Translations under genes and position numbers: made by a program
Part shown: one piece after another, positions 843-14,699 of the stretch
Position numbering within the stretch: the stretch's first letter is position 1
How the letters are laid out: the number at the start of each line of letters is the position of its first letter
From: a virus
Taxonomy: Duplodnaviria > Heunggongvirae > Uroviricota > Caudoviricetes
IMG/VR virus record: IMGVR_UViG_2850796239_000003
Span: 1-14,699 of that record
DNA length: 14,699 bases
Strand: one strand, 5' to 3'
Notes under the pieces: generated by a model
The model's input: the letters and a program-made list of their open reading frames with translations, nothing else
The model's database searches: none
Told to the model about the DNA's origin: nothing

Positions 843-979
843 ATCACTACCTCCAAAGCATGAGTGAGATGACAACGTAACATTGATTGGAGATTAACAA
901 TAGATTGCTGATGTAAAAGATATGTATAAGCTTCGCTTTCAAAGTGGAGGATCTGATAGCGGCATCTAGGCTGTGTCCC

Positions 980-1495
980 TTAATTACGTAAGCGTTGATA
1001 AAAGAGTCGGATGCAGCCCAGTTTCACCATCGCCAGGTAATTTCTCGCCGTTTTGTCGTAACGCGTGGCGATGCGGCGATATTCTTTCAGCCGCCCAAAG
1101 CACCGTTCAACGACATTACGATTGCGGTACGCATCACGATCAAGCTGTGCACGTCCATCCGATGCCATTTTCTCATTTGACTTTCGGGGGATTACTGCCT
1201 TTATACCGTTATTTTTCAGCTCGTTGCGCAATGCGCGCCCTGAATACGCTTTATCAGCCAGTACCGCATGTCCACGGCGTTTCATGCTGCCGTTCTGACG
1301 CTGAACGCCAATCCCGTCCAGAAGTCGTTGCGCGAACTGGCTTTCATGAGCTTGTCCGGGGCTTAGCACGATATTTAACGGGAGGCCACTTCCGTCTGTT
1401 GCCAGATGGATTTTGGTGCCAAAACCGCCGCGAGAGCGACCCAGCCCATTATCTCCGTCGATATCGGGATGTTTTTTTGAGCACCGGCGGCACAT
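980..1495 (-). CDS. IS5-family transposase orfB (DDE catalytic part, -1 frame relative to orfA)
   Basis: Contains GLGRSRGGFGTKIHLATDG, LADKAYSG and the Y-x2-R-x3-E-x6-K signature (DAYRNRNVVERCFGRLK). Overlaps orfA by about 120 nt across an A-run. Confidence 0.85.
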   Translation of the reverse strand: MCRRCSKKHPDIDGDNGLGRSRGGFGTKIHLATDGSGLPLNIVLSPGQAHESQFAQRLLDGIGVQRQNGSMKRRGHAVLADKAYSGRALRNELKNNGIKAVIPRKSNEKMASDGRAQLDRDAYRNRNVVERCFGRLKEYRRIATRYDKTARNYLAMVKLGCIRLFYQRLRN

Positions 1496-1824
1496 TTCAG
1501 CGCCCGGATATTACTGCCATCCAGCGCGGTGGCAGACCAGTCAATAAAGCCGTTTGCATCAAGTAGCGAAAGCAACCTGTTGAAAATAATATTAATCACG
1601 CCTGACTTTGACCATCGGTTAAAGCGGTTATAAACAGTTTTCCATGACCCATATCGTTCGGGTAAATCGCGCCATGGTGCACCGGAACATAACACCCAGA
1701 ACATGCCATTGATGATTTTACGGTGCTCAGCCCATGGGCGTCCGGCCCGTGGTGTGGCGGGTTCAGGAGGTAACAGGGGCTTGATGATGGTCCATGCCTC
1801 ATCGGGAAGGTCGTAGCGAGCCAT
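1375..1824 (-). CDS. IS5-family transposase orfA (149 aa, N-terminal DNA-binding part)
   Basis: MARYDLPDEAWTIIKPLLP...GRPWAEHRKIINGMFWVLCSGAPWRDLPERYGSWKTVYNRFNRW, the conserved N-terminal module of IS5/IS427-type transposases. Confidence 0.85.
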   Translation of the reverse strand: MARYDLPDEAWTIIKPLLPPEPATPRAGRPWAEHRKIINGMFWVLCSGAPWRDLPERYGSWKTVYNRFNRWSKSGVINIIFNRLLSLLDANGFIDWSATALDGSNIRALKCAAGAQKNIPISTEIMGWVALAAVLAPKSIWQQTEVASR

Positions 1825-1884
1825 AGTTCAATATGTTGTGTAAACAGACAGTTACTATAGCTCAGATGATTAAGGGACACAGCC

Positions 1885-2901
1885 TACATCACTGTTGTTG
1901 TTGAATATCAGCAACTGGAGGAAGCGATCAAGCTTAACCAACTGGAAGAAATTCTCGCGCCGGTTCGCCAGCGAATCGTTACCGACCTTGAAACAGAGCT
2001 TGCTCACTTCATGATGAATAACGGTGCGTTGTCACTTGGTAGCCCCAATACTCCAATCACCAAATGGTCTGATGTTGCGCAGACGGCATCTTTCCTGAAA
2101 GACCTCGGCGTTAATGAAGGTGAAAACTATGCTGTAATGGATCCATGGTCTGCACAGCGACTTGCTGATGCGCAGACTGGTTTGCACGCTTCAGATCAAT
2201 TGGTTCGTACTGCATGGGAGAATGCACAGATCCCAACCAATTTTGGCGGCATTCGCGCACTGATGTCTAATGGGCTTGCCTCTCGTACGCAGGGGGCATT
2301 TGGCGGAACACTGACAGTCAAAACACAGCCAACTGTTACCTATAACGCAGTTAAAGACTCATACCAGTTCACTGTAACATTGACCGGAGCGACAGCCAGC
2401 GTTACAGGTTTTCTGAAAGCTGGTGATCAGGTTAAATTCACCAATACCTACTGGCTGCAACAGCAGACCAAACAGGCGTTGTATAACGGAGCCACACCAA
2501 TTAGCTTCACTGCAACGGTTACTGCTGATGCTAATTCAGACAGCAGTGGCAATGTGACGGTTACGCTTTCTGGTGTTCCGATTTATGACACTACAAACCC
2601 GCAGTACAACTCTGTAAGTCGTCAGGTAGCGGCAAACGATGCCGTATCTGTAGTAGGCACTGCTAGCCAGACAATGAAGCCAAACCTGTTCTATAACAAG
2701 TTCTTCTGTGGACTTGGCTCTATCCCACTGCCGAAACTGCACAGTATTGATTCTGCTGTTGCAACATATGAAGGTTTCTCCATCCGCGTACATAAATACG
2801 CAGATGGCGATGCCAACGTGCAAAAAATGCGCTTTGACTTACTGCCTGCATATGTGTGCTTTAACCCTCACATGGGCGGTCAGTTCTTCGGTAATCCGTA
2901 A
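1885..2901 (+). pseudogene. Major capsid (coat) protein of a P22-like phage, 5'-truncated at the IS boundary (about 338 C-terminal codons)
   Basis: The reading frame is open from the first base after IS copy 1 to TAA at 2899-2901, with no plausible start or RBS at the 5' end. It lies immediately upstream of clear gp4 and gp10 homologs, the coat position in P22-like late operons, and shows loose local similarity to P22 coat. No N-terminal coat sequence exists left of the IS. Confidence 0.65.
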
Positions 2902-2905
2902 TAAC

Positions 2906-2930
2906 AAGGGGCTTACGCCCCTTTTATGTT
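2906..2930 (+). terminator. Rho-independent terminator/attenuator just downstream of the coat gene
   Basis: AAGGGGC TTAC GCCCCTT hairpin followed by TTATGTTTT on the plus strand, 5 nt after the coat stop. Confidence 0.55.
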
Positions 2931-2943
2931 TTAAGGAAACAAT

Positions 2944-3129
2944 ATGGATCGCATGAGTGTATTCCTTGCCGCAGATAACGAATCCGGGCATGTACAGGCC
3001 GTTATCGCAGAAAAAGACTTCCAGTTTTTCGAAAAGTTGGGCTTTGTTGCCTCAGTTGATGAATTGAAACCGACCAGTAAGCGAGGTCGTAAGGCGGCAG
3101 ACAATGGCAACAGTACTGACAAAGGGTGA
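2944..3129 (+). CDS. Hypothetical small protein between coat and gp4 (61 aa)
   Basis: ATG preceded by AAGGAAA. Position matches the small ORF found between coat and the gp4 homolog in Sf6-like genomes. Overlaps the gp4-like start by 26 nt. Confidence 0.45.
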   Translation: MDRMSVFLAADNESGHVQAVIAEKDFQFFEKLGFVASVDELKPTSKRGRKAADNGNSTDKG

Positions 3130-3586
3130 GATCGTCCTTTTTGCGCTTCGTAAGTTTGCTATTGCTTCTAATGCATCGCTGACTGATGTTGAGCCGCAAT
3201 CAATTGAAGATGGTGTAAATGATCTGGAAGATATGATGTCCGAGTGGATGATTAACCCCGGCGACATTGGTTACGCTTTCGCAACTGGAGATGAGCAGCC
3301 ATTACCAGATGATGAGTCAGGTCTTCCAAGAAAATACAAACACGCAGTAGGCTATCAGTTATTGCTGAGAATGCTATCTGATTACAGCCTTGAGCCAACT
3401 CCGCAAGTTCTCAGTAACGCCCAACGCTCATATGATGCCTTGATGACCGACACTCTGGTTGTTCCTTCAATGCGACGACGTGGAGATTTTCCTGTAGGAC
3501 AGGGTAATAAATATGACGTGTTCACATCTGACCGATATTATCCAGGCGATCTCCCTCTGATTGATGGCGATATCCCAAATTCATAG
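3104..3586 (+). CDS. Head-to-tail adaptor / packaged-DNA stabilisation protein, P22 gp4-like (160 aa)
   Basis: Translation aligns along its N-terminal half with recalled P22 gp4 (window ...[34 protein letters not shown] versus P22 ...[34 protein letters not shown]). Correct size and position. Confidence 0.88.
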   Translation: [160 protein letters not shown]

Positions 3587-3594
3587 GTGAATAA

Positions 3595-5013
3595 ATGCCT
3601 ATTCAGCAACTTCCGCTTATGAAAGGTGTCGGCAAAGACTTTCGAAACGCCGACTATATCGACTATCTGCCAGTGAATATGCTGGCTACACCCAAAGAAA
3701 TCCTGAACAGCAGCGGATATCTTCGCTCATTCCCTGGCATTGCCAAACGCTCTGATGTGAACGGTGTATCTCGCGGCGTCGAGTACAACATGGCGCAGAA
3801 TGCTGTTTATCGTGTGTGTGGTGGCAAGCTGTACAAAGGAGAAAGTGAAGTCGGTGACGTCGCCGGAAGTGGTCGCGTATCAATGGCGCATGGTCGTACA
3901 TCTCAGGCGATAGGTGTTAATGGTCAACTGGTCGAGTATCGCTATGATGGCACGATTAAAACCGTCTCAAACTGGCCTACAGATAGCGGATTCACTCAGT
4001 ATGAGCTAGGTTCGGTTCGTGACATTACGCGCTTACGTGGGCGTTATGCGTGGTCAAAAGACGGTACTGATTCATGGTTTATCACTGACCTTGAAGACGA
4101 ATCACATCCTGACCGATACAGCGCACAATATCGCGCAGAATCTCAGCCTGATGGCATCATCGGCATAGGGACATGGCGAGACTTCATCGTCTGCTTTGGT
4201 TCATCGACGATTGAATATTTCTCCCTGACTGGTGCAACCACCGTTGGTGCTGCTTTGTATGTCGCCCAGCCATCATTGATGGTGCAAAAAGGCATCGCCG
4301 GGACTTACTGCAAAACGCCGTTTGCTGATTCCTATGCTTTCATCAGCAACCCGGCAACGGGTGCGCCGTCTGTGTACATCATCGGTTCCGGTCAGGTATC
4401 ACCAATCGCCAGCGCGAGCATTGAGAAAATACTTCGCTCCTACACTGCTGATGAACTGGCTGATGGTGTGATGGAGTCTCTGCGATTTGATGCGCATGAG
4501 TTGCTGATTATCCATCTTCCGCGTCACGTCCTTGTGTACGATGCATCTTCAAGCGCCAATGGTCCGCAATGGTGTGTGCTGAAAACAGGCCTGTATGACG
4601 ATGTGTACCGCGCTATCGACTTCATTTACGAAGGCAATCAGATAACGTGCGGCGATAAGCTGGAATCCGTGACCGGGAAACTGCAGTTCGATATCAGCAG
4701 CCAGTACGACAAGCAGCAGGAACACCTGCTGTTTACTCCGTTGTTCAAAGCGGATAACGCCAGATGCTTCGATCTGGAGGTGGAATCATCCACTGGCGTA
4801 GCTCAGTACGCCGACCGCCTGTTCCTCTCTGCAACCACTGACGGCATCAATTACGGACGTGAGCAGATGATTGAGCAGAATGAACCGTTCGTTTACGACA
4901 AACGCGTTTTGTGGAAGCGAGTAGGGCGCATCAGGAAAAATGTCGGCTTCAAATTGCGCATTATCACGAAGTCACCTGTCACTCTGTCTGGCACTCAGAT
5001 AAGGATTGAGTAA
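3595..5013 (+). CDS. Packaged-DNA stabilisation / tail hub protein, P22 gp10-like (472 aa)
   Basis: N-terminus [49 protein letters not shown] matches recalled P22 gp10. Same length as P22 gp10. AGGTG RBS. Stop overlaps the next start (TAATG). Confidence 0.88.
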
Positions 5014-5861
5014 TGGCGGATTCGAATCTCAATACACCTGTTATTGTTCAGGCGACGCGGCTCGATACATCAATCCTTCCACGCAATATCTTCTCGCAGT
5101 CGTATCTGCTTTACGTTATCGCACAGGGTACTGATGTTGGTAACGTGGTGAATAAGGCCAACGAGTCCGGACAGGGCGCTTATGACGCGCAGGTAAGGAA
5201 CGATGAGCAGGATGTGATTCTGGTTGATCACGAAATTCGACTGGCATCAGCTGAAGCGAAGATACAGGACCACGAAACAAGGATCACTAACGCAGAAGCA
5301 GCGATAGTCGGCCTTGATTCGCGATTAACGACAGCAGAAAACGATATTGATTATCTGACTGATGAAGTTGTCGCCATTCAAAACACGCTTTCAGACCATG
5401 AAACGCGCATCGATGCTCTGGAGTATGCCACTACTCGCAAGAAGTCAGAGGTTGTTTACTCTGGCGTATCTGTAACCATCCCGACAGCGCCGACTAACCT
5501 TGTTAGCCTGCTGAAAACGCTCACGCCGTCATCCGGCTCGTTGGCACCATTCTTCGACACCGTTAACAACAAGATGGTTGTGTTCAACGAGAACAAAACC
5601 TTGTTCTTCAAGTTGTCGATTGTCGGGACGTGGCCCAGTGGAACCGCAAACAGGTCAATGCAGCTAACCTTTTCCGGCTCTGTTCCTGACACGTTGGTCA
5701 GCAGTCGTAATGCGGCGACAACAACCGATAACATCTTGTTAGCTACGTTCTTCAGCGTGGATAAAGACGGCTTTCTTGTCACAAATGGCAGCACGTTAAC
5801 CATTCAGTCAAATGGTGCGGCGTTTACTGCCACAACCATCAAGATAATCGCGGAGCAGTGA
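5013..5861 (+). CDS. Tail needle, P22 gp26-like N-terminus with C-terminal knob domain (282 aa)
   Basis: N-terminal ~60 residues ([43 protein letters not shown]...[16 protein letters not shown]) match recalled P22 gp26. A heptad-rich coiled-coil stretch is followed by a C-terminal domain of ~140 residues that P22 gp26 lacks, as in Sf6-type needles. Confidence 0.88.
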
Positions 5862-6316
5862 TGATTCAGTTCAAACCAACGCGAAACATCGACCTGATCG
5901 AAGCAGTAGGAAATCACCCTGACATTATCGCCGGGAGCAACAACGGCGATGGATACGACTACAAGCCTGAATGCCGTTACTTTGAGGTTAACGTGCATGG
6001 GCAGTTCGGCGGCATTGTTTACTATCAGGAGATTCAGCCGCTGACATTCGATTGCCACGCCATGTACCTGCCAGAGATTCGCGGCTTCAGCAAGGAAATC
6101 GGGCTGGCGTTCTGGCGATACATTCTGACTAACACCACCGTTCAGTGTGTCACATCGTTCGCTGCACGCAAATTCCGCCACGGGCAGATGTACTGCGCAA
6201 TGATTGGCCTTAAGCGTGTCGGAACCATCAAGAAATACTTTAAAGGCGTGGATGACGTGACGTTTTACAGCGCCACACGCGAAGAACTAATCGACTTCCT
6301 GAATCACGGGAGATAG
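5861..6316 (+). CDS. P22 gp14-like virion assembly protein (151 aa), by synteny
   Basis: ATG at 5861 overlaps the needle stop (TGATG) with GGAG 5 nt upstream; the ORF-track GTG at 5858 is less likely. Size and position match gene 14 between the needle and ejection-protein genes. Confidence 0.65.
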   Translation: MIQFKPTRNIDLIEAVGNHPDIIAGSNNGDGYDYKPECRYFEVNVHGQFGGIVYYQEIQPLTFDCHAMYLPEIRGFSKEIGLAFWRYILTNTTVQCVTSFAARKFRHGQMYCAMIGLKRVGTIKKYFKGVDDVTFYSATREELIDFLNHGR

Positions 6317-6318
6317 CT

Positions 6319-6856
6319 ATGTTATATGCATTTAAGCTGGGCAGAAAACTGCGCGGCGAGGAACCTTATTGCCCTGAAAAAGGCGGGAAAGGTGGCTCCG
6401 ATAAAAGCGCAAAGTATGCAGCAGAAGCTCAGAAGTATGCCGCAGACCTGCAAAATCAGCAGTGGCAGACGATCATGAAAAACCTTGCTCCGTTCACGCC
6501 TCTTGCGGAGCAGTATGTTAACCAGCTTCAGAACCTTTCCAGTTTAGAAGGTCAGGGGCAGGCACTTAATCAGTATTACAACTCTCAGCAGTATAAAGAC
6601 CTTGCAGGTCAGGCTCGTTACCAGAGTCTTGCTGCTGCGGAGGCGACGGGTGGACTTGGTTCGACAGCCACAAGCAATCAACTGGCTACGATCGCGCCTA
6701 CTCTCGGTCAGTCTTGGTTATCAAACCAGATGAGCAATTACAACAATCTGGCAAACGTTGGGCTTGGTGCACTTCAAGGTCAGGCAAACGCCGGGCAGAC
6801 GTACGCCAACAACATGAGCAGCATTGCACAGCAAAGCGCAGCTCTTGCCGCTGCTA
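6319..6856 (+). pseudogene. Ejection protein, P22 gp7-like, 5' fragment interrupted by IS copy 2
   Basis: ORF starts at ATG 6319 and runs into the IS, where the frame terminates artificially (...ARLCPLII*). Q/N/A-rich ejection-protein-like composition. Position matches gene 7. Confidence 0.7.
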
Positions 6857-6872
6857 GGCTGTGTCCCTTAAT
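6857..6872. repeat. Left terminal inverted repeat of IS copy 2
   Basis: GGCTGTGTCCCTTAAT, a perfect reverse complement of 7757-7772. Confidence 0.85.
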
Positions 6873-6916
6873 CATCTGAGCTATAGTAACTGTCTGTTTA
6901 CACAACATATTGAACT

Positions 6917-7366
6917 ATGGCTCGCTACGACCTTCCCGATGAGGCATGGACCATCATCAAGCCCCTGTTACCTCCTGAACCCGCCACACCACGGGCCGGA
7001 CGCCCATGGGCTGAGCACCGTAAAATCATCAATGGCATGTTCTGGGTGTTATGTTCCGGTGCACCATGGCGCGATTTACCCGAACGATATGGGTCATGGA
7101 AAACTGTTTATAACCGCTTTAACCGATGGTCAAAGTCAGGCGTGATTAATATTATTTTCAACAGGTTGCTTTCGCTACTTGATGCAAACGGCTTTATTGA
7201 CTGGTCTGCCACCGCGCTGGATGGCAGTAATATCCGGGCGCTGAAATGTGCCGCCGGTGCTCAAAAAAACATCCCGATATCGACGGAGATAATGGGCTGG
7301 GTCGCTCTCGCGGCGGTTTTGGCACCAAAATCCATCTGGCAACAGACGGAAGTGGCCTCCCGTTAA
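6917..7366 (+). CDS. IS5-family transposase orfA (149 aa)
   Basis: Identical translation to copy 1 orfA. Confidence 0.85.
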   Translation: MARYDLPDEAWTIIKPLLPPEPATPRAGRPWAEHRKIINGMFWVLCSGAPWRDLPERYGSWKTVYNRFNRWSKSGVINIIFNRLLSLLDANGFIDWSATALDGSNIRALKCAAGAQKNIPISTEIMGWVALAAVLAPKSIWQQTEVASR

Positions 7367-7761
7367 ATATCGTGCTAAGCCCCGGACAAGCTCATGAAAG
7401 CCAGTTCGCGCAACGACTTCTGGACGGGATTGGCGTTCAGCGTCAGAACGGCAGCATGAAACGCCGTGGACATGCGGTACTGGCTGATAAAGCGTATTCA
7501 GGGTGCGCATTGCGCAACGAGCTGAAAAATAACGGTATAAAGGCAGTAATCCCCCGAAAGTCAAATGAGAAAATGGCATCGGATGGACGTGCACAGCTTG
7601 ATCGTGATGCGTACTGCAATCGTAATGTCGTTGAACGGTGCTTTGGGCGGCTGAAAGAATATCGCCGCATCGCCACGCGTTACGACAAAACGGCGAGAAA
7701 TTACCTGGCGATGGTGAAACTGGGCTGCATCCGACTCTTTTATCAACGCTTACGTAATTAA
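7246..7761 (+). CDS. IS5-family transposase orfB (DDE domain, -1 frame)
   Basis: As copy 1 orfB, with two Arg to Cys differences (TGC at 7504-7506 and 7615-7617 where copy 1 has CGC). Confidence 0.85.
   Translation: MCRRCSKKHPDIDGDNGLGRSRGGFGTKIHLATDGSGLPLNIVLSPGQAHESQFAQRLLDGIGVQRQNGSMKRRGHAVLADKAYSGCALRNELKNNGIKAVIPRKSNEKMASDGRAQLDRDAYCNRNVVERCFGRLKEYRRIATRYDKTARNYLAMVKLGCIRLFYQRLRN
7264..7270 (+). other. Candidate -1 programmed frameshift heptamer A AAA AAC joining orfA to orfB
   Basis: In the orfA frame the codons are caA AAA AAc. A -1 slip enters the orfB frame (..SKKHPDID..). The same motif occurs in copy 1 at 1471-1477 as a reverse complement. Confidence 0.5.
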
Positions 7762-7772
7762 GGGACACAGCC
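7757..7772. repeat. Right terminal inverted repeat of IS copy 2
   Basis: ATTAAGGGACACAGCC, a perfect reverse complement of 6857-6872. Confidence 0.85.
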
Positions 7773-7774
7773 TA

Positions 7775-7926
7775 ATGCCAATAAACCATCAAGTCTTCAG
7801 ACTGCAATTAGTGGCGGAACGTCTGGTGCGATTGCCGGTGCAGGTCTTGCCAGCCTTTTGGGAACATCAACACCTTGGGGCGCTGGCATTGGTGCTGGTA
7901 TCGGATTGCTTGGTTCGTTGTTTTAA
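7775..7926 (+). pseudogene. Ejection protein, P22 gp7-like, 3' fragment (about 50 codons)
   Basis: Removing the IS and one TA copy restores one continuous frame: ...AAN ANKPSSLQTAISGGTSGAIAGAGLASLLGTSTPWGAGIGAGIGLLGSLF, stop at 7924-7926. The rebuilt ORF is about 229 codons, the size I recall for P22 gp7. Confidence 0.65.
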
Positions 7927-7935
7927 GGGGTAATC

Positions 7936-9402
7936 ATGGCTACTTGGCAAGGATCAAATGGCGGATTGTTGGCTGGTATCGGCGGCGTCAACTCAAACGC
8001 TCCGAGCGTAAATGACATCGGCAATACGCTTCAGCTTATCAGGCAGAACAATGATATTGAGCGTTCAGGCGCTAACAATGTTGGGCTGACTGCTTTGCAA
8101 GGCCTTTCAGGTATTGCGGGGGTGTTTCAGCAGGAAAAGCAGGCTCAGCGGCAGAAAGAATTTCAGCAGGCATACGCTAATGCTTATGCGTCTGGTGATC
8201 GCGGTGCTTTGCGTCAGTTGGCTACTCAATATCCAGACCAGATTGAATCCGTTCGTAAAGGCATGGGATTCATTGATGAAGATCAGCGTAATTCTATCGG
8301 CACCTTAGCGGCTGGCGCACGCCTTGCGTCATCGTCTCCAGAAGCAATGCAATCATGGCTGCAAAACAACGCCAAGGAACTGACTCGCGTCGGTGTTGAC
8401 CCTAACAGCGTTGCTCAGATGTATCAGCAGAACCCTTCAGGATTTGGTGAGTTTGTTGATCACCTTGGAATGGCTGCTCTTGGTCCGATTGATTACTTCA
8501 ATGTTCAGGACAAGATGGCTGGTCGTGAGATTGACCGAGGCAGACTGGCAGAGACAATCCGCAGCAATCAGGCTGGAGAAGCACTTCAGGCGAGAGGGCA
8601 GGATATTAGCCGAGCAAATGCGTTAACGTCAGCATATGCACCAACAGCCGCAATGCAGAATTACAATCAGTACGCGCAAATGTTAAAGGCGGATCCAGAT
8701 GGTGCAGCGGCATTTGCGGCAGCGGCGGGAATTAATCCCAATGCTAAGAAATTACTTAAGGTTGAAACCAATCCTGATGGCTCGGTAACTAAGTATTACA
8801 CCGATGGCAGCGAGGAAGCCGGAAAACTAAACCAACCTATATCTGGTGATGGCATTAAACCAATTAGCTTGCCACAAGCGCAAAGCATCATAGATAAGGC
8901 TAATGAGGGTTCCAAGAAGGCGGCAGGATTTGCTTTGCGATTAAAAGATTCAATGGACTCAATGAATCAGCTTAGTAAAAGCATTGACCCTAAGCGAGTT
9001 GCATTAATAAATCGCTCTCTTGGTGATGGGACTATTGCAAATTTAAGCCTATCACCAGCGGAGCAGCAATATATGGTAAATGCGAGAGACGCCTTGTATG
9101 CAATTTTGCGCCCAGAAACAGGTGCAGCAATTACTCTGCCAGAGATGCAGGAGTATTCCAAAATGTACCTGCCTCAGCCCGGTGATTCCAAGGCTGCTAC
9201 TGAAACAAAAATGCGAAAAATGCAGGGCCAATATAACTCATTACGTGGTCAGTCTGGTCGCGTTTATGATGCTTTGGTGGTTTCAAGTGCTGCAAATAGT
9301 CAACAACAGAGCAATAGCCAACAACCGGCAAATACCCAACAGCAGCAGAGTCAATCCGGATCATATACCTCAAAATCAGGCATTCAATTTACGGTGGAAT
9401 GA
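7936..9402 (+). CDS. Ejection (internal virion) protein, P22 gp20-like (488 aa), by synteny and size
   Basis: ATG at 7936 preceded by AAGGGG. Gly/Ala/Gln-rich. Q/S-rich low-complexity C-terminal tail. Stop overlaps the next start (ATGA). Confidence 0.7.
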
Positions 9403-11246
9403 TGAAAGTAACTGCAAACGGTAAGACATTTACCTTCCCTGATGGTACGAGCATGGAAGATATTGGCACCGCCATTGATGAGTATTTTGCTGGTCAGGCT
9501 GTTCAGCAACAAACAGTTAATCAGGCCAATAATGAACCAGCACGTGAAGAACCATCATTGATGCAACAAGCTGGCGATTGGCTCACAGGCGGGCAAAGTG
9601 CAGGGCAAATTGCAGAGCAGGCTGGTCGTGGTCTGGTAAACATACCATTTGACGTATTGCAGGGCGGCGCAAGTCTGATTAATGCAATCAGTCAGGGGCT
9701 TGGTGGACCCAAGGTTTTGGATGATGTTTATCGTCCAGTAGACAGACCGACAGACACCTACGCGCAAGCCGGTGAAACAATTGGTGGGTATTTAGTTCCA
9801 GGAGTTGGAACGGCAGGAAGCATGGCTATTGGATCACTGGCAGAGGCCGCAAATCAGAAAGGCGATTTCGCACAAAATGCAGCTAAAAATGCCGGAGTTA
9901 ACCTTGCCGCTCAGGGTGTTCTTTCCGCAGCAGCAAAGGGAATAGGGCGTGGAATAACGGCTATAAAAGGTGATATTGCGCCAGAAGTGGCGAAGAAAAT
10001 TGCCACATCAGAATCGATGGGCGTGACACCAATGACATCTGATGTTATCCCGCCGAAAAATGCTTTCACTCGCGGCCTTACTCAGGATGCCGAGGGGGCT
10101 TTGCTCGGGACAGGCTCAAAGCGAGCGGAGCAATATGCAACGCGTAGTAAGCTGGTAAGTAATTATTTTGACCGTTTTGGTGAGTACAACCCTGATGATG
10201 TGGTGAAATCTCTGACCACCACGTTAAGGGGGCGGAAGGATGCCGCTGGCGCTGTTATCAATGACGTCACCAATAAAATGGGTAATGCCGCAGTTGATAC
10301 CACAAATACCATGAATGCTCTGAATACAGCGATCGCAAGACAGGAACGGCTTGGGACGTCTGCCAATCAAAGCCTGCTTACATCCTTGCGTAACCTACGT
10401 GAAGAATTAGCAAACCCTGCAACTGATTTGGATGTTACGTTTGATCTCTTGCGTCAGCACAGAACAGCATTTAGATCTAATGTTCAGGGAGATGCTATGG
10501 TCTTCCCCAACCAGGCAAAAGCAGCTACCAATATGGTAGAGAATGCAATGTCAAAAGACCTTCGTAACGCAGTTGCTAAAAACCTCGGTGCATCAGACGC
10601 AGCAAAATACCTTAAAGCAAATTCCGATTATGCAAACGTTTATAATAAGGTGCTTAATAAAAACATTGCTAACAAGCTCAACAAGGCAAGCAGTGAAGCC
10701 AGTCCTGAACTTATAAATACCGTTGTATTAAGCAGAAAACCATCTGACGTGAAACGAATCTGGAGCGCACTGGATGATAAGGGGAAAGATGCTATGCGTG
10801 CAGCTTACGTCAGCAAAATAGCGGAAAAGGCCGGGGACTCTCCAGCCAAGTTCATCACTGAAGTTAATAAGCTGAAATCTCAGTCAGGCGGTGAAATTTA
10901 CAACACTATTTTTTCTGGAAAGCACATGAAAGAGCTTGATGCTCTTCATGAAGTTCTACAGCAAACAGCAAGGTCAGACACCGCAAATGTAGTAACTCAG
11001 ACGGGGCAATCGCAAGCCAACAGGATAAGGACGATTGGCGCAACTGCGACCCTTGGCGTATCAATGGGGCTTGAGGCTGGTTTTGGTGCAATGATGCGCT
11101 TGTATGAGTCCAAAGCAGCAAGGAATGCTCTCTTACGTCTGGCAAACACTAAAACTGGAACGCCAGCTTATGAAAGAGCGCTAAATAATGCTGCAAATGC
11201 GATACGCCCTATACTTTCAAGCCAAATTACAGCAGAACAGCAATAA
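9399..11246 (+). CDS. Ejection (internal virion) protein, P22 gp16-like (615 aa), by synteny and size
   Basis: Last gene of the plus-strand late block. The length is close to the ~609 aa I recall for P22 gp16. N-terminus [16 protein letters not shown]. Confidence 0.7.
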
Positions 11247-11796: not shown

Positions 11797-12063
11797 CTAT
11801 GTTTCCTTTTTATTATTGCTATACATGGTCTTAAGCGTTTCAAAAACCATTTTCTTAACCATATCAGATTGTTGTTCTGCCATACGCTCTGCATCGTCAA
11901 TGTAAACTGATGCAGAGCTTTGTTTATCCAATGATTCCTCAATCGCTGCAATTATCTCTGAGTTCAGCGATCTGTTATTCATCTTCGCACGCTGTTTAAT
12001 TTTCGCGTGGAGTTCATGCGGAAGTATCAAGTGAAACTGCGCCTCGTCGTATTTGCTGTACAT
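11797..12063 (-). CDS. mnt: Mnt-like ribbon-helix-helix repressor (immI region), 88 aa
   Basis: Translation aligns with recalled P22 Mnt (window NNRSLNSEII...DDAERMAEQQSDMVKKMVFETLKTMY versus P22 NGRSMNSELL...NDAERLADEQSELVKKMVFDTLKDLY). Start at ATG 12063 is preferred; the alternative ATG at 12096 would give 99 aa. Confidence 0.8.
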   Translation of the reverse strand: MYSKYDEAQFHLILPHELHAKIKQRAKMNNRSLNSEIIAAIEESLDKQSSASVYIDDAERMAEQQSDMVKKMVFETLKTMYSNNKKET

Positions 12064-12134
12064 CCTTGATGCCTCACCAGTTGGGTGGAATGGCATCGTA
12101 ACCTACTGGATAAATACTCAATAGTACCATTTCG

Positions 12135-12150: not shown

Positions 12151-13056
12151 CTATATTTCCAGACATCTGTTATCACTTAACCCATTACAAGCCCGCTGCC
12201 GCAGATATTCCCGTGGCGAGCGATAACCCAGCGCACTATGCGGATGCCATTCGTTATAATGCTCGAACGCCTCTGCAAGGTTCTTTGCTGCCGTTAACCC
12301 GTCTGGTTTGGGCATGATACTGATGTAGTCACGCTTTATCGTTTTCACGAAGCTCTCTGCTATTCCGTTACTCTCCGGACTCCGCACCGCCGTGTTCTTC
12401 GGTTCAAGTCCCAACATCCGGGCGAACTGGCGTGTTTCATTAGCCCGGTAGCATGAACCATTATCCGTCAGCCACTCCACTGGAGACGACGGAAGATCGT
12501 TGCCGAAGCGGCGTTCCACCGCTCCCAGCATGACGTCCTGTACTGTTTCACTGTTGAAGCCGCCGGTAGTCACCGCCCAGTGCAGTGCCTCACGATCACA
12601 GCAGTCCAGCGCGAACGTGACACGCAGTCTCTCTCCGTTATCACAGCAGAACTCGAACCCGTCAGAGCACCATCGCTGATTGCTTTCTTTCACGGCCACT
12701 CTGCCTGTATGTGCCCGTTTCGATGGCGGTACAGCAGGTTTTCGCTCAAGCAACAGCGCATTCTGGCGCATGATCCGGTAAACACGTTTGGCATTGATCG
12801 CAGGCATACCATCAAGTTCTGCCTGTCTGCGAAGCAGCGCCCATACCCGACGATAACCATACGTGGGCAGCTCTCCGATAACATGGTGTATACGGAGAAG
12901 CACATCCGTATCATCAGTGTGACGACTGCGGCGGCCATCCATCCAGTCATCGGTTCGTCTGAGAATGACGTGCAACTGCGCACGCGACACCCGGAGACAA
13001 CGGCTGACTAAGCTTACTCCCCATCCCCGGGCAATAAGGGCGCGTGCGCTATCCAC
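12151..13056 (-). CDS. insD: IS2 transposase OrfB (InsD), 301 aa
   Basis: Translation [28 protein letters not shown]... with an IS3-family DDE integrase core. Overlaps insC in the -1 frame. Confidence 0.9.
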
Positions 13057-13379
13057 TTTTTTGCCCGTCCATATTCAACGGCTTCTTTGAGGAGTTCATT
13101 TTCCATCGTTTTCTTGCCGAGCAGGCGCTGGAGTTCTTTAATCTGCTTCATGGCGGCAGCAAGTTCAGAGGCAGGAACAACCTGTTCTCCGGCGGCCACA
13201 GCAGTAAGACTTCCTTCCTGGTATTGCTTACGCCAGAGAAATAACTGGCTGGCTGCTACACCATGTTGCCGGGCAACGAGGGAGACCGTCATCCCCGGTT
13301 CAAAGCTCTGCTGAACAATTGCGATCTTTTCCTGTGTGGTACGCCGTCTGCGTTTCTCCGGCCCTAAGACATCAATCAT
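13014..13379 (-). CDS. insC: IS2 transposase OrfA (InsC), 121 aa
   Basis: [41 protein letters not shown]..., a helix-turn-helix protein. Start taken at the internal ATG at 13379 rather than the 136-aa ORF-track start. Confidence 0.9.
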
Positions 13380-13470
13380 CTGTACTCCAATGACTAGTCT
13401 AAAAACTAGTATTAAGACTATCACTTATTTAAGTGATACTGGTTGTCTGGAGATTCAGGGGGCCAGTCTA

Positions 13471-13475
13471 GTATG
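13471..13475. repeat. IS2 target-site duplication (GTATG), right copy
   Basis: Identical to 12135-12139. Confidence 0.85.
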
Positions 13476-13520
13476 CAATCACATCATGGTTGCATCATAT
13501 CATTCGTCTGGAGCAATGAA

Positions 13521-14676
13521 ATGTCAGATATCACCGCAAATGTTGTGGTAAGCATGCCTTCGCAACTCTTCACTATGGCTCGTTCTTTTAAAGCGGTTGC
13601 CAATGGCAAAATTTATATCGGTAAAATTGACACGGATCCGGTAAATCCTGAAAACCAGATTCAGGTTTATTTAGAGAACGAAGACGGCTCTTACGTTCCT
13701 GTTTCACAACCAATCATCATTAACGCTGCTGGTTACCCTGTATATAACGGACAGATTGCCAAATTCGTTACCGTGCAAGGCCATTCTATGGCTGTTTATG
13801 ATGCGTACGGTGCGCAGCAGTTTTATTTTCCGAATGTGCTGAAGTACGACCCGGATCAGCTTGAGAAAAGATTGTCGTTAAACACGGGAGCTTCCCTGAT
13901 TGGTACATATTCAGGAGCATCGATTCAGTCGGAGATTGACTGTATTAATGAAAGCATTGAAATTATCAATAATGACGAACTTCCAAATCTATCGCTAGGG
14001 GTGGCATCATCTATAAAAACATCGGTCCAAATAATTGATGAAATTAAAGATCCATCTATTTCTTATGATGCATTTGGTAACTCCGTGTTCTACAATGGCC
14101 GCAATTTATTTTGCTTCAGGAGATCACCTGAGCATGTTGATACTTATACAGGCATGCACAGTGTGTGCATAGCAGAAATACTCAACAATGGAGCTTGTAA
14201 AATAATATGGGAATATACTGATAATACTGGCAATGCACCTAAAGATCCTACATTATCAGTCAGTAACCCAGGTAATACACTAATTATTTCTTTTCAGATT
14301 CATAATGTTTCATCTGATACATATACTTCTGGTATTATTGGATATCCTGATTTGTCAAATACTGGTAAGTTTTTATCAAGTTCTGAACTTACCACGGATC
14401 ATAACGTTTTTTTATGGGGTAATGTACTGCAAACTCCATCTGGAAATTTTATAACATCCAGATATAAAATTGATGGCACTGGTGTAGAGATAATTTCTTC
14501 ATCTGATACAAATTTAAACGAAAATACAACATGGTCTATAGTTAGTACACTTTCTGTTGGTTCGTTCCAGACAAGAACATCAGTTAATGAATGCAGTCTT
14601 TCATATTATAGAAATCAACTAGTTGCAATAGTCAGAACTCAGTCAGGCTCTTCTTTGGGTGGTTTTGGATATGCTA
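13521..14676 (+). pseudogene. Tailspike: P22 gp9-type head-binding N-terminal domain fused to a divergent AT-rich receptor-binding domain, 3'-truncated by IS copy 3
   Basis: ATG at 13521 with GGAG 7 nt upstream. The first ~110 residues ([50 protein letters not shown]...[12 protein letters not shown]...NVLKYDPDQ) match the recalled P22 tailspike head-binding domain; the rest is unrelated and visibly AT-rich. The frame runs into the IS at 14677, leaving about 385 codons. Confidence 0.85.
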
Positions 14677-14699
14677 GGCTGTGTCCCTTAATCATCTGA
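14677..14699 (+). mobile_element. IS5-family IS (same element), copy 3, left end only (cut by the window edge)
   Basis: GGCTGTGTCCCTTAATCATCTGA is identical to the first 23 nt of copy 2 and is preceded by TA at 14675-14676. Confidence 0.8.

Follow-up and report, generated by a model that had tools for sequence, protein, structure and literature searches.

The hairpin that follows the coat gene in the window (the whole 14,699-nt stretch of viral DNA analyzed here) is, judged by its sequence, the element annotated as "t coat" in phage Sf6 and "tGP5" in phage HK620, and it is therefore already known and annotated. It is very likely an RNA-level element forming and protecting 3' ends. The best reading, which we hold with considerable confidence, is a dual element in which leaky termination and a barrier to exonucleases would together form and protect the 3' ends of the coat mRNA. 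In the window itself the late promoter, the Q gene and the 5' end of the coat gene are gone, and the hairpin is an inherited relic in a broken prophage, probably with no late-operon job there.

Structure and identity of the post-coat hairpin

The hairpin lies on the plus strand and is formed by a 5' arm AAGGGGC (2906-2912) and a 3' arm GCCCCTT (2917-2923), both of which were recognized in the sequence, in the terminator scan and by folding. A TTAC tetraloop (2913-2916) connects the two arms, and the sequence continues into the T-rich tail, or U-tract, TTTTATGTTTT (2922-2932, plus strand). Tandem in-frame stops TAA TAA (2899-2904, plus strand) close the coat frame; the coat stop occupies 2899-2901 and the second TAA 2902-2904, followed by a single C and then the hairpin. 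The hairpin starts at the fifth nucleotide past the coat stop, with 4 nt between, and 21 nt separate it from the next ATG (2944), which is preceded on the same strand by a Shine-Dalgarno-like AAGGA (2933-2937). The preliminary description had put a hairpin with a T-run 5 nt past the coat stop, ahead of the next ORF, and its coordinates and placement were accurate. A weak second hairpin at ~2927-2941 may partly cover the start region of the next ORF.

A consensus terminator scan of the window described the element as a stem of 7 pairs, 5 of them G-C, with a loop of 4 nt and a T-run. The fold-energy calculation proposed in the preliminary description gave -11.6 kcal/mol for the hairpin alone (-9.1 kcal/mol for its G-C core alone), and segments of 45-56 nt around it had z scores of -2.9 to -3.3 against dinucleotide shuffles. 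The U-tract TTTTATGT contains six T in the 8 nt past the G-C core and obtained a TransTermHP-style tail score of -4.9, where 15 consecutive T would score -7.1. A G-C-rich stem within ~5-14 bp and a loop within 3-8 nt, a U-rich tract directly 3' of the stem on the transcribed strand, and a location downstream of a coding region in transcript orientation (plus strand) were all found, so that the hairpin has the predicted shape of an intrinsic terminator. Its reverse complement carries no T-run, which makes the element unidirectional on the plus strand, and a bidirectional terminator was rejected on this ground. An Rfam covariance-model scan of the whole window gave no matches at the gathering score, and Rfam has no family for the hairpin.

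Terminator-like sequences were not rare in the window under loose criteria. The loose consensus scan returned 24 sites against 14.5 ± 4.4 expected, showing that weak matches are common, and the post-coat hairpin ranked among the best sites. With strict thresholds (a stem of 7 or more pairs, 5 or more of them G-C, and a T-run, on both strands, with 100 shuffles as the reference), two sites were found, compared to a mean of 0.73 in the shuffles for both strands together, and any one 40-nt slot of one strand has a chance of ~1e-3 of containing such a site. The post-coat hairpin is one of the two strict sites. The other lies at 580-599 on the minus strand (AAGCCGCCTGATGGCGGTTT then TTTTATTTGG); its Sf6 counterpart, minus-strand 18437-18456 downstream of gene 19, carries no annotation in AF547987. 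A strict scan of the Sf6 plus strand over the structural cluster (1-15590) recovered "t coat" and one site at the end of the tailspike gene, with no others.

The 42-nt spacer between the coat gene and the next ORF was 100% identical to those of Sf6 and HK620, and the flanks were 99% identical. The Sf6 record (AF547987) annotates a terminator "t coat" at 6147-6173, labelled as a stem-loop and likely transcription terminator, and the HK620 record (AF335538) a terminator "tGP5" at 25827-25853, labelled as a consensus termination sequence after the major capsid transcript; both labels are predictions, not experiments. A predicted terminator stands at the equivalent place in the HF4s record. The P22 record (NC_002371) lists a putative "stem_loop" at 6102-6119 and likens its location to the stem-loops of HK97 and lambda. 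The comparison with Sf6 and P22 that had been suggested in the preliminary description thus yielded an identical hairpin in Sf6 (and HK620) and, in P22, the same GGGGC/GCCCC core with a different loop. The window hairpin matches in sequence and is orthologous in position, with the coat gene on one side and the gene 6/hkbT ORF on the other, whereas a functional Q-dependent late operon around it is absent. It has kept its sequence membership in the "t coat"/"tGP5" element and lost the functional context.

The remnant prophage around the hairpin

Two blocks of the window, 1884-6856 and 7772-8585, were 96-99% identical to Sf6 and its relatives HK620, HF4s, N7 and Gally. Positions 1-257 and 573-636 matched Sf6 18188-18493, the left end of the prophage beside attP, and the next match to Sf6 began at 5125. 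Approximately 25.7 kb of an Sf6-like genome is missing in between, comprising the early regions and operons, Q, the late promoter (PR') with the qut site, and the genes for lysis, terminase, portal, scaffold and the 5' end of the coat. An ISSfl7-like insertion sequence of the IS5 family (964-1887, minus strand) replaces the coat 5' end and everything upstream. It directly abuts the coat fragment (1887-2901, plus strand), the counterpart of Sf6 gene 5 between codon ~85 (of 423) and the stop, which aligns by blastn to Sf6 from 5125 onward; codons 1 to ~84 are deleted. Upstream, the frame of the fragment is closed by a stop at 1873-1875, within the IS end, and no start codon precedes the internal ATG at 2011. 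The mechanically called coat ORF (2011-2901, plus strand; 296 aa) starts at this ATG and shares 98.6-99% identity with the coat proteins of Sf6 and HK620. The preliminary description had spoken of a coat gene, and this holds for the frame that ends at 2901, although the gene is a 5'-truncated fragment. It had also placed the hairpin inside the late operon, which is true of the intact relatives, whereas the operon in the window lacks everything upstream.

For a promoter upstream of the coat fragment there was a single candidate, at 1988-2015, which matches 9 of 12 consensus positions. With 18 in the window against 22.5 expected from shuffles, promoter-like sites were not in excess and gave no evidence for a promoter before the coat fragment, and the candidate was dismissed. 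The preliminary description had read the hairpin as a sign that regulatory architecture survives in the remnant. The presence of the hairpin is uninformative on this point: with flanks ~99% identical to Sf6, recent ancestry by itself predicts that the 42-nt spacer has stayed the same, which says nothing about selection or function in the remnant, and everything from the promoter to about 85 coat codons has been deleted.

The first gene downstream of the hairpin is a small ORF of 61 codons (2944-3129, plus strand), a homologue of Sf6 gene 6 and HK620 hkbT, which had no Pfam or NCBIfam match. The same ORF (starting MERKSVF...) is conserved right after the hairpin in NM-3, MS2 LVA and APSE, and it overlaps the start of the following gene by 26 nt. 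The latter (3104-3586, plus strand) encodes a homologue of P22 gp4, a head-tail adaptor and minor virion protein equivalent to Sf6 gene 7 (Pfam P22_Tail-4, E = 3e-74).

Several other features of the remnant were observed. A second ISSfl7-like copy (6855-7774), 100% identical to the first and inverted, interrupts the gene 11 homologue. Both copies have a two-ORF, apparently frameshifted transposase. The 4,968 bp between them run from the 3' part of the coat gene to the gene 11 homologue, and the arrangement resembles a composite transposon or an invertible segment. The right copy carries a 3-bp duplication of Sf6 10098-10100, and the left copy abuts the large deletion. The ISSfl7-like element occurs mostly on Shigella plasmids, which suggests a Shigella host. 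The region of ejection-protein gene homologues (P22 gp20/gp16 region, 8586-11246) diverges from Sf6 past 8585; ORF 7936-9402 has an Inj_translocase domain, and ORF 9399-11246 had no Pfam match. Mosaic replacement of this kind has been described for the injection proteins of P22-like phages (PMC2629481). An ORF for an Arc/Mnt-type ribbon-helix-helix repressor (11797-12096, minus strand) sits at the "ant moron" position. It is adjoined by an IS2 copy (~12.1-13.4 kb) with two minus-strand ORFs, one for TnpB (12151-13056) and the other at 13014-13424. The tailspike ORF (13443-14699) encodes a P22 head-binding domain and runs past the window end. Its first ~350 nt alone resemble Sf6 (86.5% identity) and the remainder is different, which implies a receptor (O-antigen) specificity unlike that of Sf6.

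Conservation of the hairpin and the strand under selection

We compared the hairpin with those of close and distant relatives. The 79 close relatives from IMG/VR, which are 98-100% identical and therefore inform on micro-variation, not diversity, contained no base substitution in either stem arm. Apart from changes in the loop (TTAC, TTCC or TTCG), they differed by a single extra G in the 5' arm and a single loss of 2 nt from the tail. Where the coat type was shared and the DNA had diverged, each phage had its own G-C-rich hairpin at this position: AAGGGGC-TTCG-GCCCCTT in NM-3, GGGAGC-TTCG-GCTCCC in MS2 LVA, GGGCGC-TTTA-GTGCCC in APSE-1/2 and GGGGC-GTAA-GCCCC in phiSG1. G-C-rich hairpins of differing sequence were also found in the equivalent position in Shewanella ZP9, Vibrio 234P9, Pseudoalteromonas H6/1 and P22.

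The distant set consisted of 80 diverse IMG/VR loci (L097-L176), of which the 72 with non-identical downstream sequence were counted. Their coats are 59-76% identical to that of Pseudoalteromonas H6/1, which is itself ~35% identical to the Sf6 coat, and the alignment used for the rescan of this set was headed by a distant coat. The best single hairpin within 70 nt past the coat stop was taken for each locus, and intragenic segments of the same loci served as controls. The median best hairpin was -15.9 kcal/mol after the coat gene (n = 72) and -9.7 kcal/mol in the controls, which differ from intergenic DNA in base composition. Hairpins of -12 kcal/mol or below followed the coat gene in 67 of 72 loci, compared to 40 of 144 controls (28%), although the loci are mutually related and the first of these counts overstates the number of independent events. 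Core hairpins started no more than 27 nt past the coat stop in 63 of 64 cases, a range within which ribosomes reportedly suppress termination. The commonest loop was UUCG, present in 21 of 70 distant hairpins. The preliminary description had named a lack of conservation in related phages, together with weak predicted stability, as what would speak against its reading; instead, the position is kept down to ~35% coat identity, with differing sequences. Such retention of position and structure, and not of sequence, is in these alignments the signature expected of a functional RNA structure.

The mismatches in the stems indicated the strand and the molecule on which selection acts. A G·T mismatch is a legal G·U pair in the plus-strand (sense) RNA only, whereas on the other strand or in duplex DNA G·T and A·C mismatches are equivalent. 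In a strand-symmetric search in which either mismatch was allowed, 52 transition mismatches were G·T and one was A·C (binomial p ~1e-14); the relatedness of the loci again inflates this ratio as a count of independent events, and some of the G·T pairs sit at stem bases beside the T-run and may reflect composition. The asymmetry suggests that the structure was selected in the sense late mRNA and argues against a DNA palindrome or an antisense RNA. A covariation count on a loop-anchored alignment of 54 tetraloop hairpins was left aside, because its rows had been pre-selected for pairing and the count would be circular; the enrichment by position and the comparison of G·T with A·C were used instead.

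These data bear on two further explanations of the hairpin. It could be a DNA-level element, either a palindrome bound by a protein or a short, conserved "boundary" sequence at which recombination between mosaic modules is favored. The stems of P22 (AGGGGC-TGCG-GCCCCT) and Sf6 (AAGGGGC-TTAC-GCCCCTT) are indeed nearly alike while their coat genes have no detectable nucleotide similarity, and several "boundary sequences" are marked at other places in the Sf6 record. However, that record has no boundary feature at the post-coat hairpin, 14-18 nt is very short for homologous exchange, and the stem sequences of the relatives vary freely with pairing kept, which is inconsistent with sequence-specific recognition. 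Together with the 52:1 asymmetry, which points to selection on one strand as RNA, this makes a DNA-level role very improbable. A chance palindrome or a functionless leftover would agree with the abundance of weak matches in the loose scan and with the probable lack of a current role in the remnant. The strict scan, however, expects only 0.73 sites per window on both strands, and the hairpin falls exactly inside the 42-nt spacer; an equivalent hairpin recurs at the same position down to ~35% coat identity and also in HK97, lambda and T7. The chance explanation is already contradicted by the conservation data, and we give it almost no weight.

Termination, mRNA protection and known systems

The distant hairpins also carry information on termination. 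Six or more T in the 8 nt past the stem followed 39% of 64 distant hairpins, compared to 3.8% of random nearby positions, and this enrichment suggests that the terminator shape itself has been selected. On the other hand, 30% of the distant core hairpins had three T or fewer in the next 8 nt. A U-tract follows the hairpin in about half of the distant homologues and is absent in ~30%. These counts were made on core stems, since the lowest-energy fold of 45 nt can absorb the T-run into the stem. The T-run was present in every enteric relative examined, including the window (six of eight T). What is expected of a decay barrier, namely a stable hairpin 3' of an abundantly needed cistron that is conserved independently of the U-tract, was found as well. 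A literature search for 3'-end mapping, half-life or mutant data on the post-coat hairpin of Sf6, HK620 or P22 found nothing usable.

The setting of the hairpin in an intact phage is unfavorable for efficient termination. The late operons of lambdoid phages are transcribed by a Q-antiterminated polymerase (PMC2629481), and the Q, late promoter and qut site of Sf6 are annotated as phage-21-like in its GenBank record. Q21 forms a nozzle on the RNA-exit channel, giving a pausing-deficient and termination-deficient complex in which terminator hairpins are prevented (Yin, Kaelber, Ebright, bioRxiv 10.1101/651190). The in vivo efficiency of lambda tR2 fell from ~90% to <10% when the stop codon was moved from 28 to 5 bp upstream, owing to occlusion by the ribosome (PMC4824070). 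With Q21-type antitermination and a stem 4 nt past a heavily translated stop, a low native efficiency of termination is predicted. The Sf6 record shows no separate promoter for the essential genes downstream, and the element must therefore be leaky. Given Q21 antitermination, ribosome occlusion and the missing U-tracts, a contribution from shielding the 3' end of the coat mRNA is no less likely than one from termination.

The preliminary description had proposed that a partial terminator lowers the expression of the downstream minor proteins, an assumption shared by those who annotated Sf6, HK620 and HK97 in GenBank. This mechanism is plausible but probably incomplete. If it acted purely as a partial terminator, a fixed fraction of polymerases would release at the U-tract and RNA stability would be irrelevant. 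The canonical shape (5 G-C pairs, a tetraloop and six of eight T), the roughly 10-fold enrichment of the U-tract in distant relatives and the terminators annotated after the capsid gene in the Sf6, HK620, HF4s and HK97 records all agree with this, as does T7 Tphi, an annotated terminator in the same position, with inefficient terminators stated in general terms to balance T7 expression (PMC9163698). The arriving polymerase, however, would be Q21-type antiterminated and termination-deficient, the distance of the stem from the stop is of the kind that cut tR2 to <10% (PMC4824070), and 30% of the distant homologues combine a strong hairpin with three T or fewer in the next 8 nt. We consider termination as the whole explanation unlikely. 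The hairpin could conversely be a pure decay barrier or processing product, with practically no termination; it would then stall PNPase and RNase II after endonucleolytic cuts downstream and leave a longer-lived coat segment. The hairpin is better conserved than the U-tract (a strong hairpin in 67 of 72 loci, no U-tract in 30%), the extra-stable UUCG loop is frequent (21 of 70), the Q21 mechanism and ribosome occlusion both weigh in this direction, and strong terminators lifted the abundance of upstream transcripts ~2.2-fold in one study (PMC11696848). An exonuclease block needs no U-tract, yet the U-tract is strongly enriched (39% vs 3.8%) and occurs in every enteric relative examined, including the window. 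Protection as the whole explanation is therefore doubtful, though it has a real chance of being correct.

The two activities are not mutually exclusive, and the dual element accommodates the evidence for both. A decay barrier is likely a material contributor, and the chance that at least 10% of late transcripts are terminated at the hairpin we rate as about even. In an intact phage, the hairpin would be transcribed by polymerase that initiated at the late promoter, and the nascent RNA would fold into the 7-bp stem (5 G-C) with the UUAC loop. A minority of polymerases would release at the U-tract, which is leaky intrinsic termination, while longer transcripts would be cut downstream and trimmed back by 3'-5' exonucleases until these stall at the hairpin. 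Both routes would leave a coat-proximal RNA that ends in a protective hairpin. The mRNA of the coat gene (and the genes upstream of it) would thereby outlast or outnumber that of the low-copy head-completion, ejection and tailspike proteins, with sufficient read-through left to express the essential downstream genes.

A more far-reaching proposal is that, in P22-like phages and in lambdoid phages at large, the hairpin after the coat gene may be primarily a Q-proof post-transcriptional device, ignored by the antiterminated polymerase, that blocks 3' exonucleases and sets the stoichiometry of capsid and minor proteins. The U-tract would then be secondary and might, for example, catch polymerases that have lost Q. 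We regard this proposal as speculative; if it were true, the "terminator" labels in GenBank would misstate the mechanism of an entire class of late operons in phages. That a sense-strand hairpin is present in >90% of the distant P22-type coat homologues, while a U-tract accompanies only about half, sharpens the old question of termination versus RNA protection inside antiterminated late operons. The comparative data may be of modest general use, and they have little importance for the window locus itself.

The closest known systems are Sf6 "t coat" and HK620 "tGP5", which have an identical spacer and position; the prophage in the window differs in being degraded, with the coat 5' end and all upstream genes deleted beside the ISSfl7-like element. 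P22 is similar in that its hairpin lies 5 nt past the coat stop, has the GGGGC/GCCCC core, a tetraloop and a T-rich tail, and precedes a small ORF, after which comes gene 4. However, its loop is TGCG, its stem has 6 bp, and its record speaks of a "stem_loop", not of a terminator. The P22 coat also belongs to another sequence type and was not recovered by tblastn with the Sf6-type coat of the window.

HK97 has a putative terminator after its major head gene 5 (GGGGGCGGG-GAAA-CCCGCCC followed by TTTTAACG), with more such sites before and after its major tail gene. In lambda, ATGGCCC-TTCG-GGGCCAT followed by TGTTTCTC lies 2 nt past the stop of gene E, and its tail is a poor U-tract. Both phages resemble the window element in having a G-C-rich hairpin a few nucleotides past the major capsid stop, inside a Q-antiterminated late operon. 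Their capsid genes and sequences are unrelated to it, however, and the resemblance is positional or convergent. REP elements and the intercistronic C(UUCG)G hairpins of T4 likewise place a stable hairpin 3' of a highly expressed cistron in a polycistronic RNA, and they are thought to act as decay barriers of the kind considered above. The window hairpin differs by its UUAC loop and its good U-tract, while many hairpins of the distant coat homologues do have the UUCG loop. A terminator directly after the major capsid gene has also been described in LUZ100 (PMC10134795). In T7, where inefficient terminators are cited as a means of balancing expression (PMC9163698), Tphi stands directly after gene 10, which encodes the major capsid protein, and the essential genes downstream rely on read-through. 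Tphi acts, however, on the phage's own single-subunit RNA polymerase, has a longer hairpin in a region of about -28 kcal/mol, and operates without Q-type antitermination.
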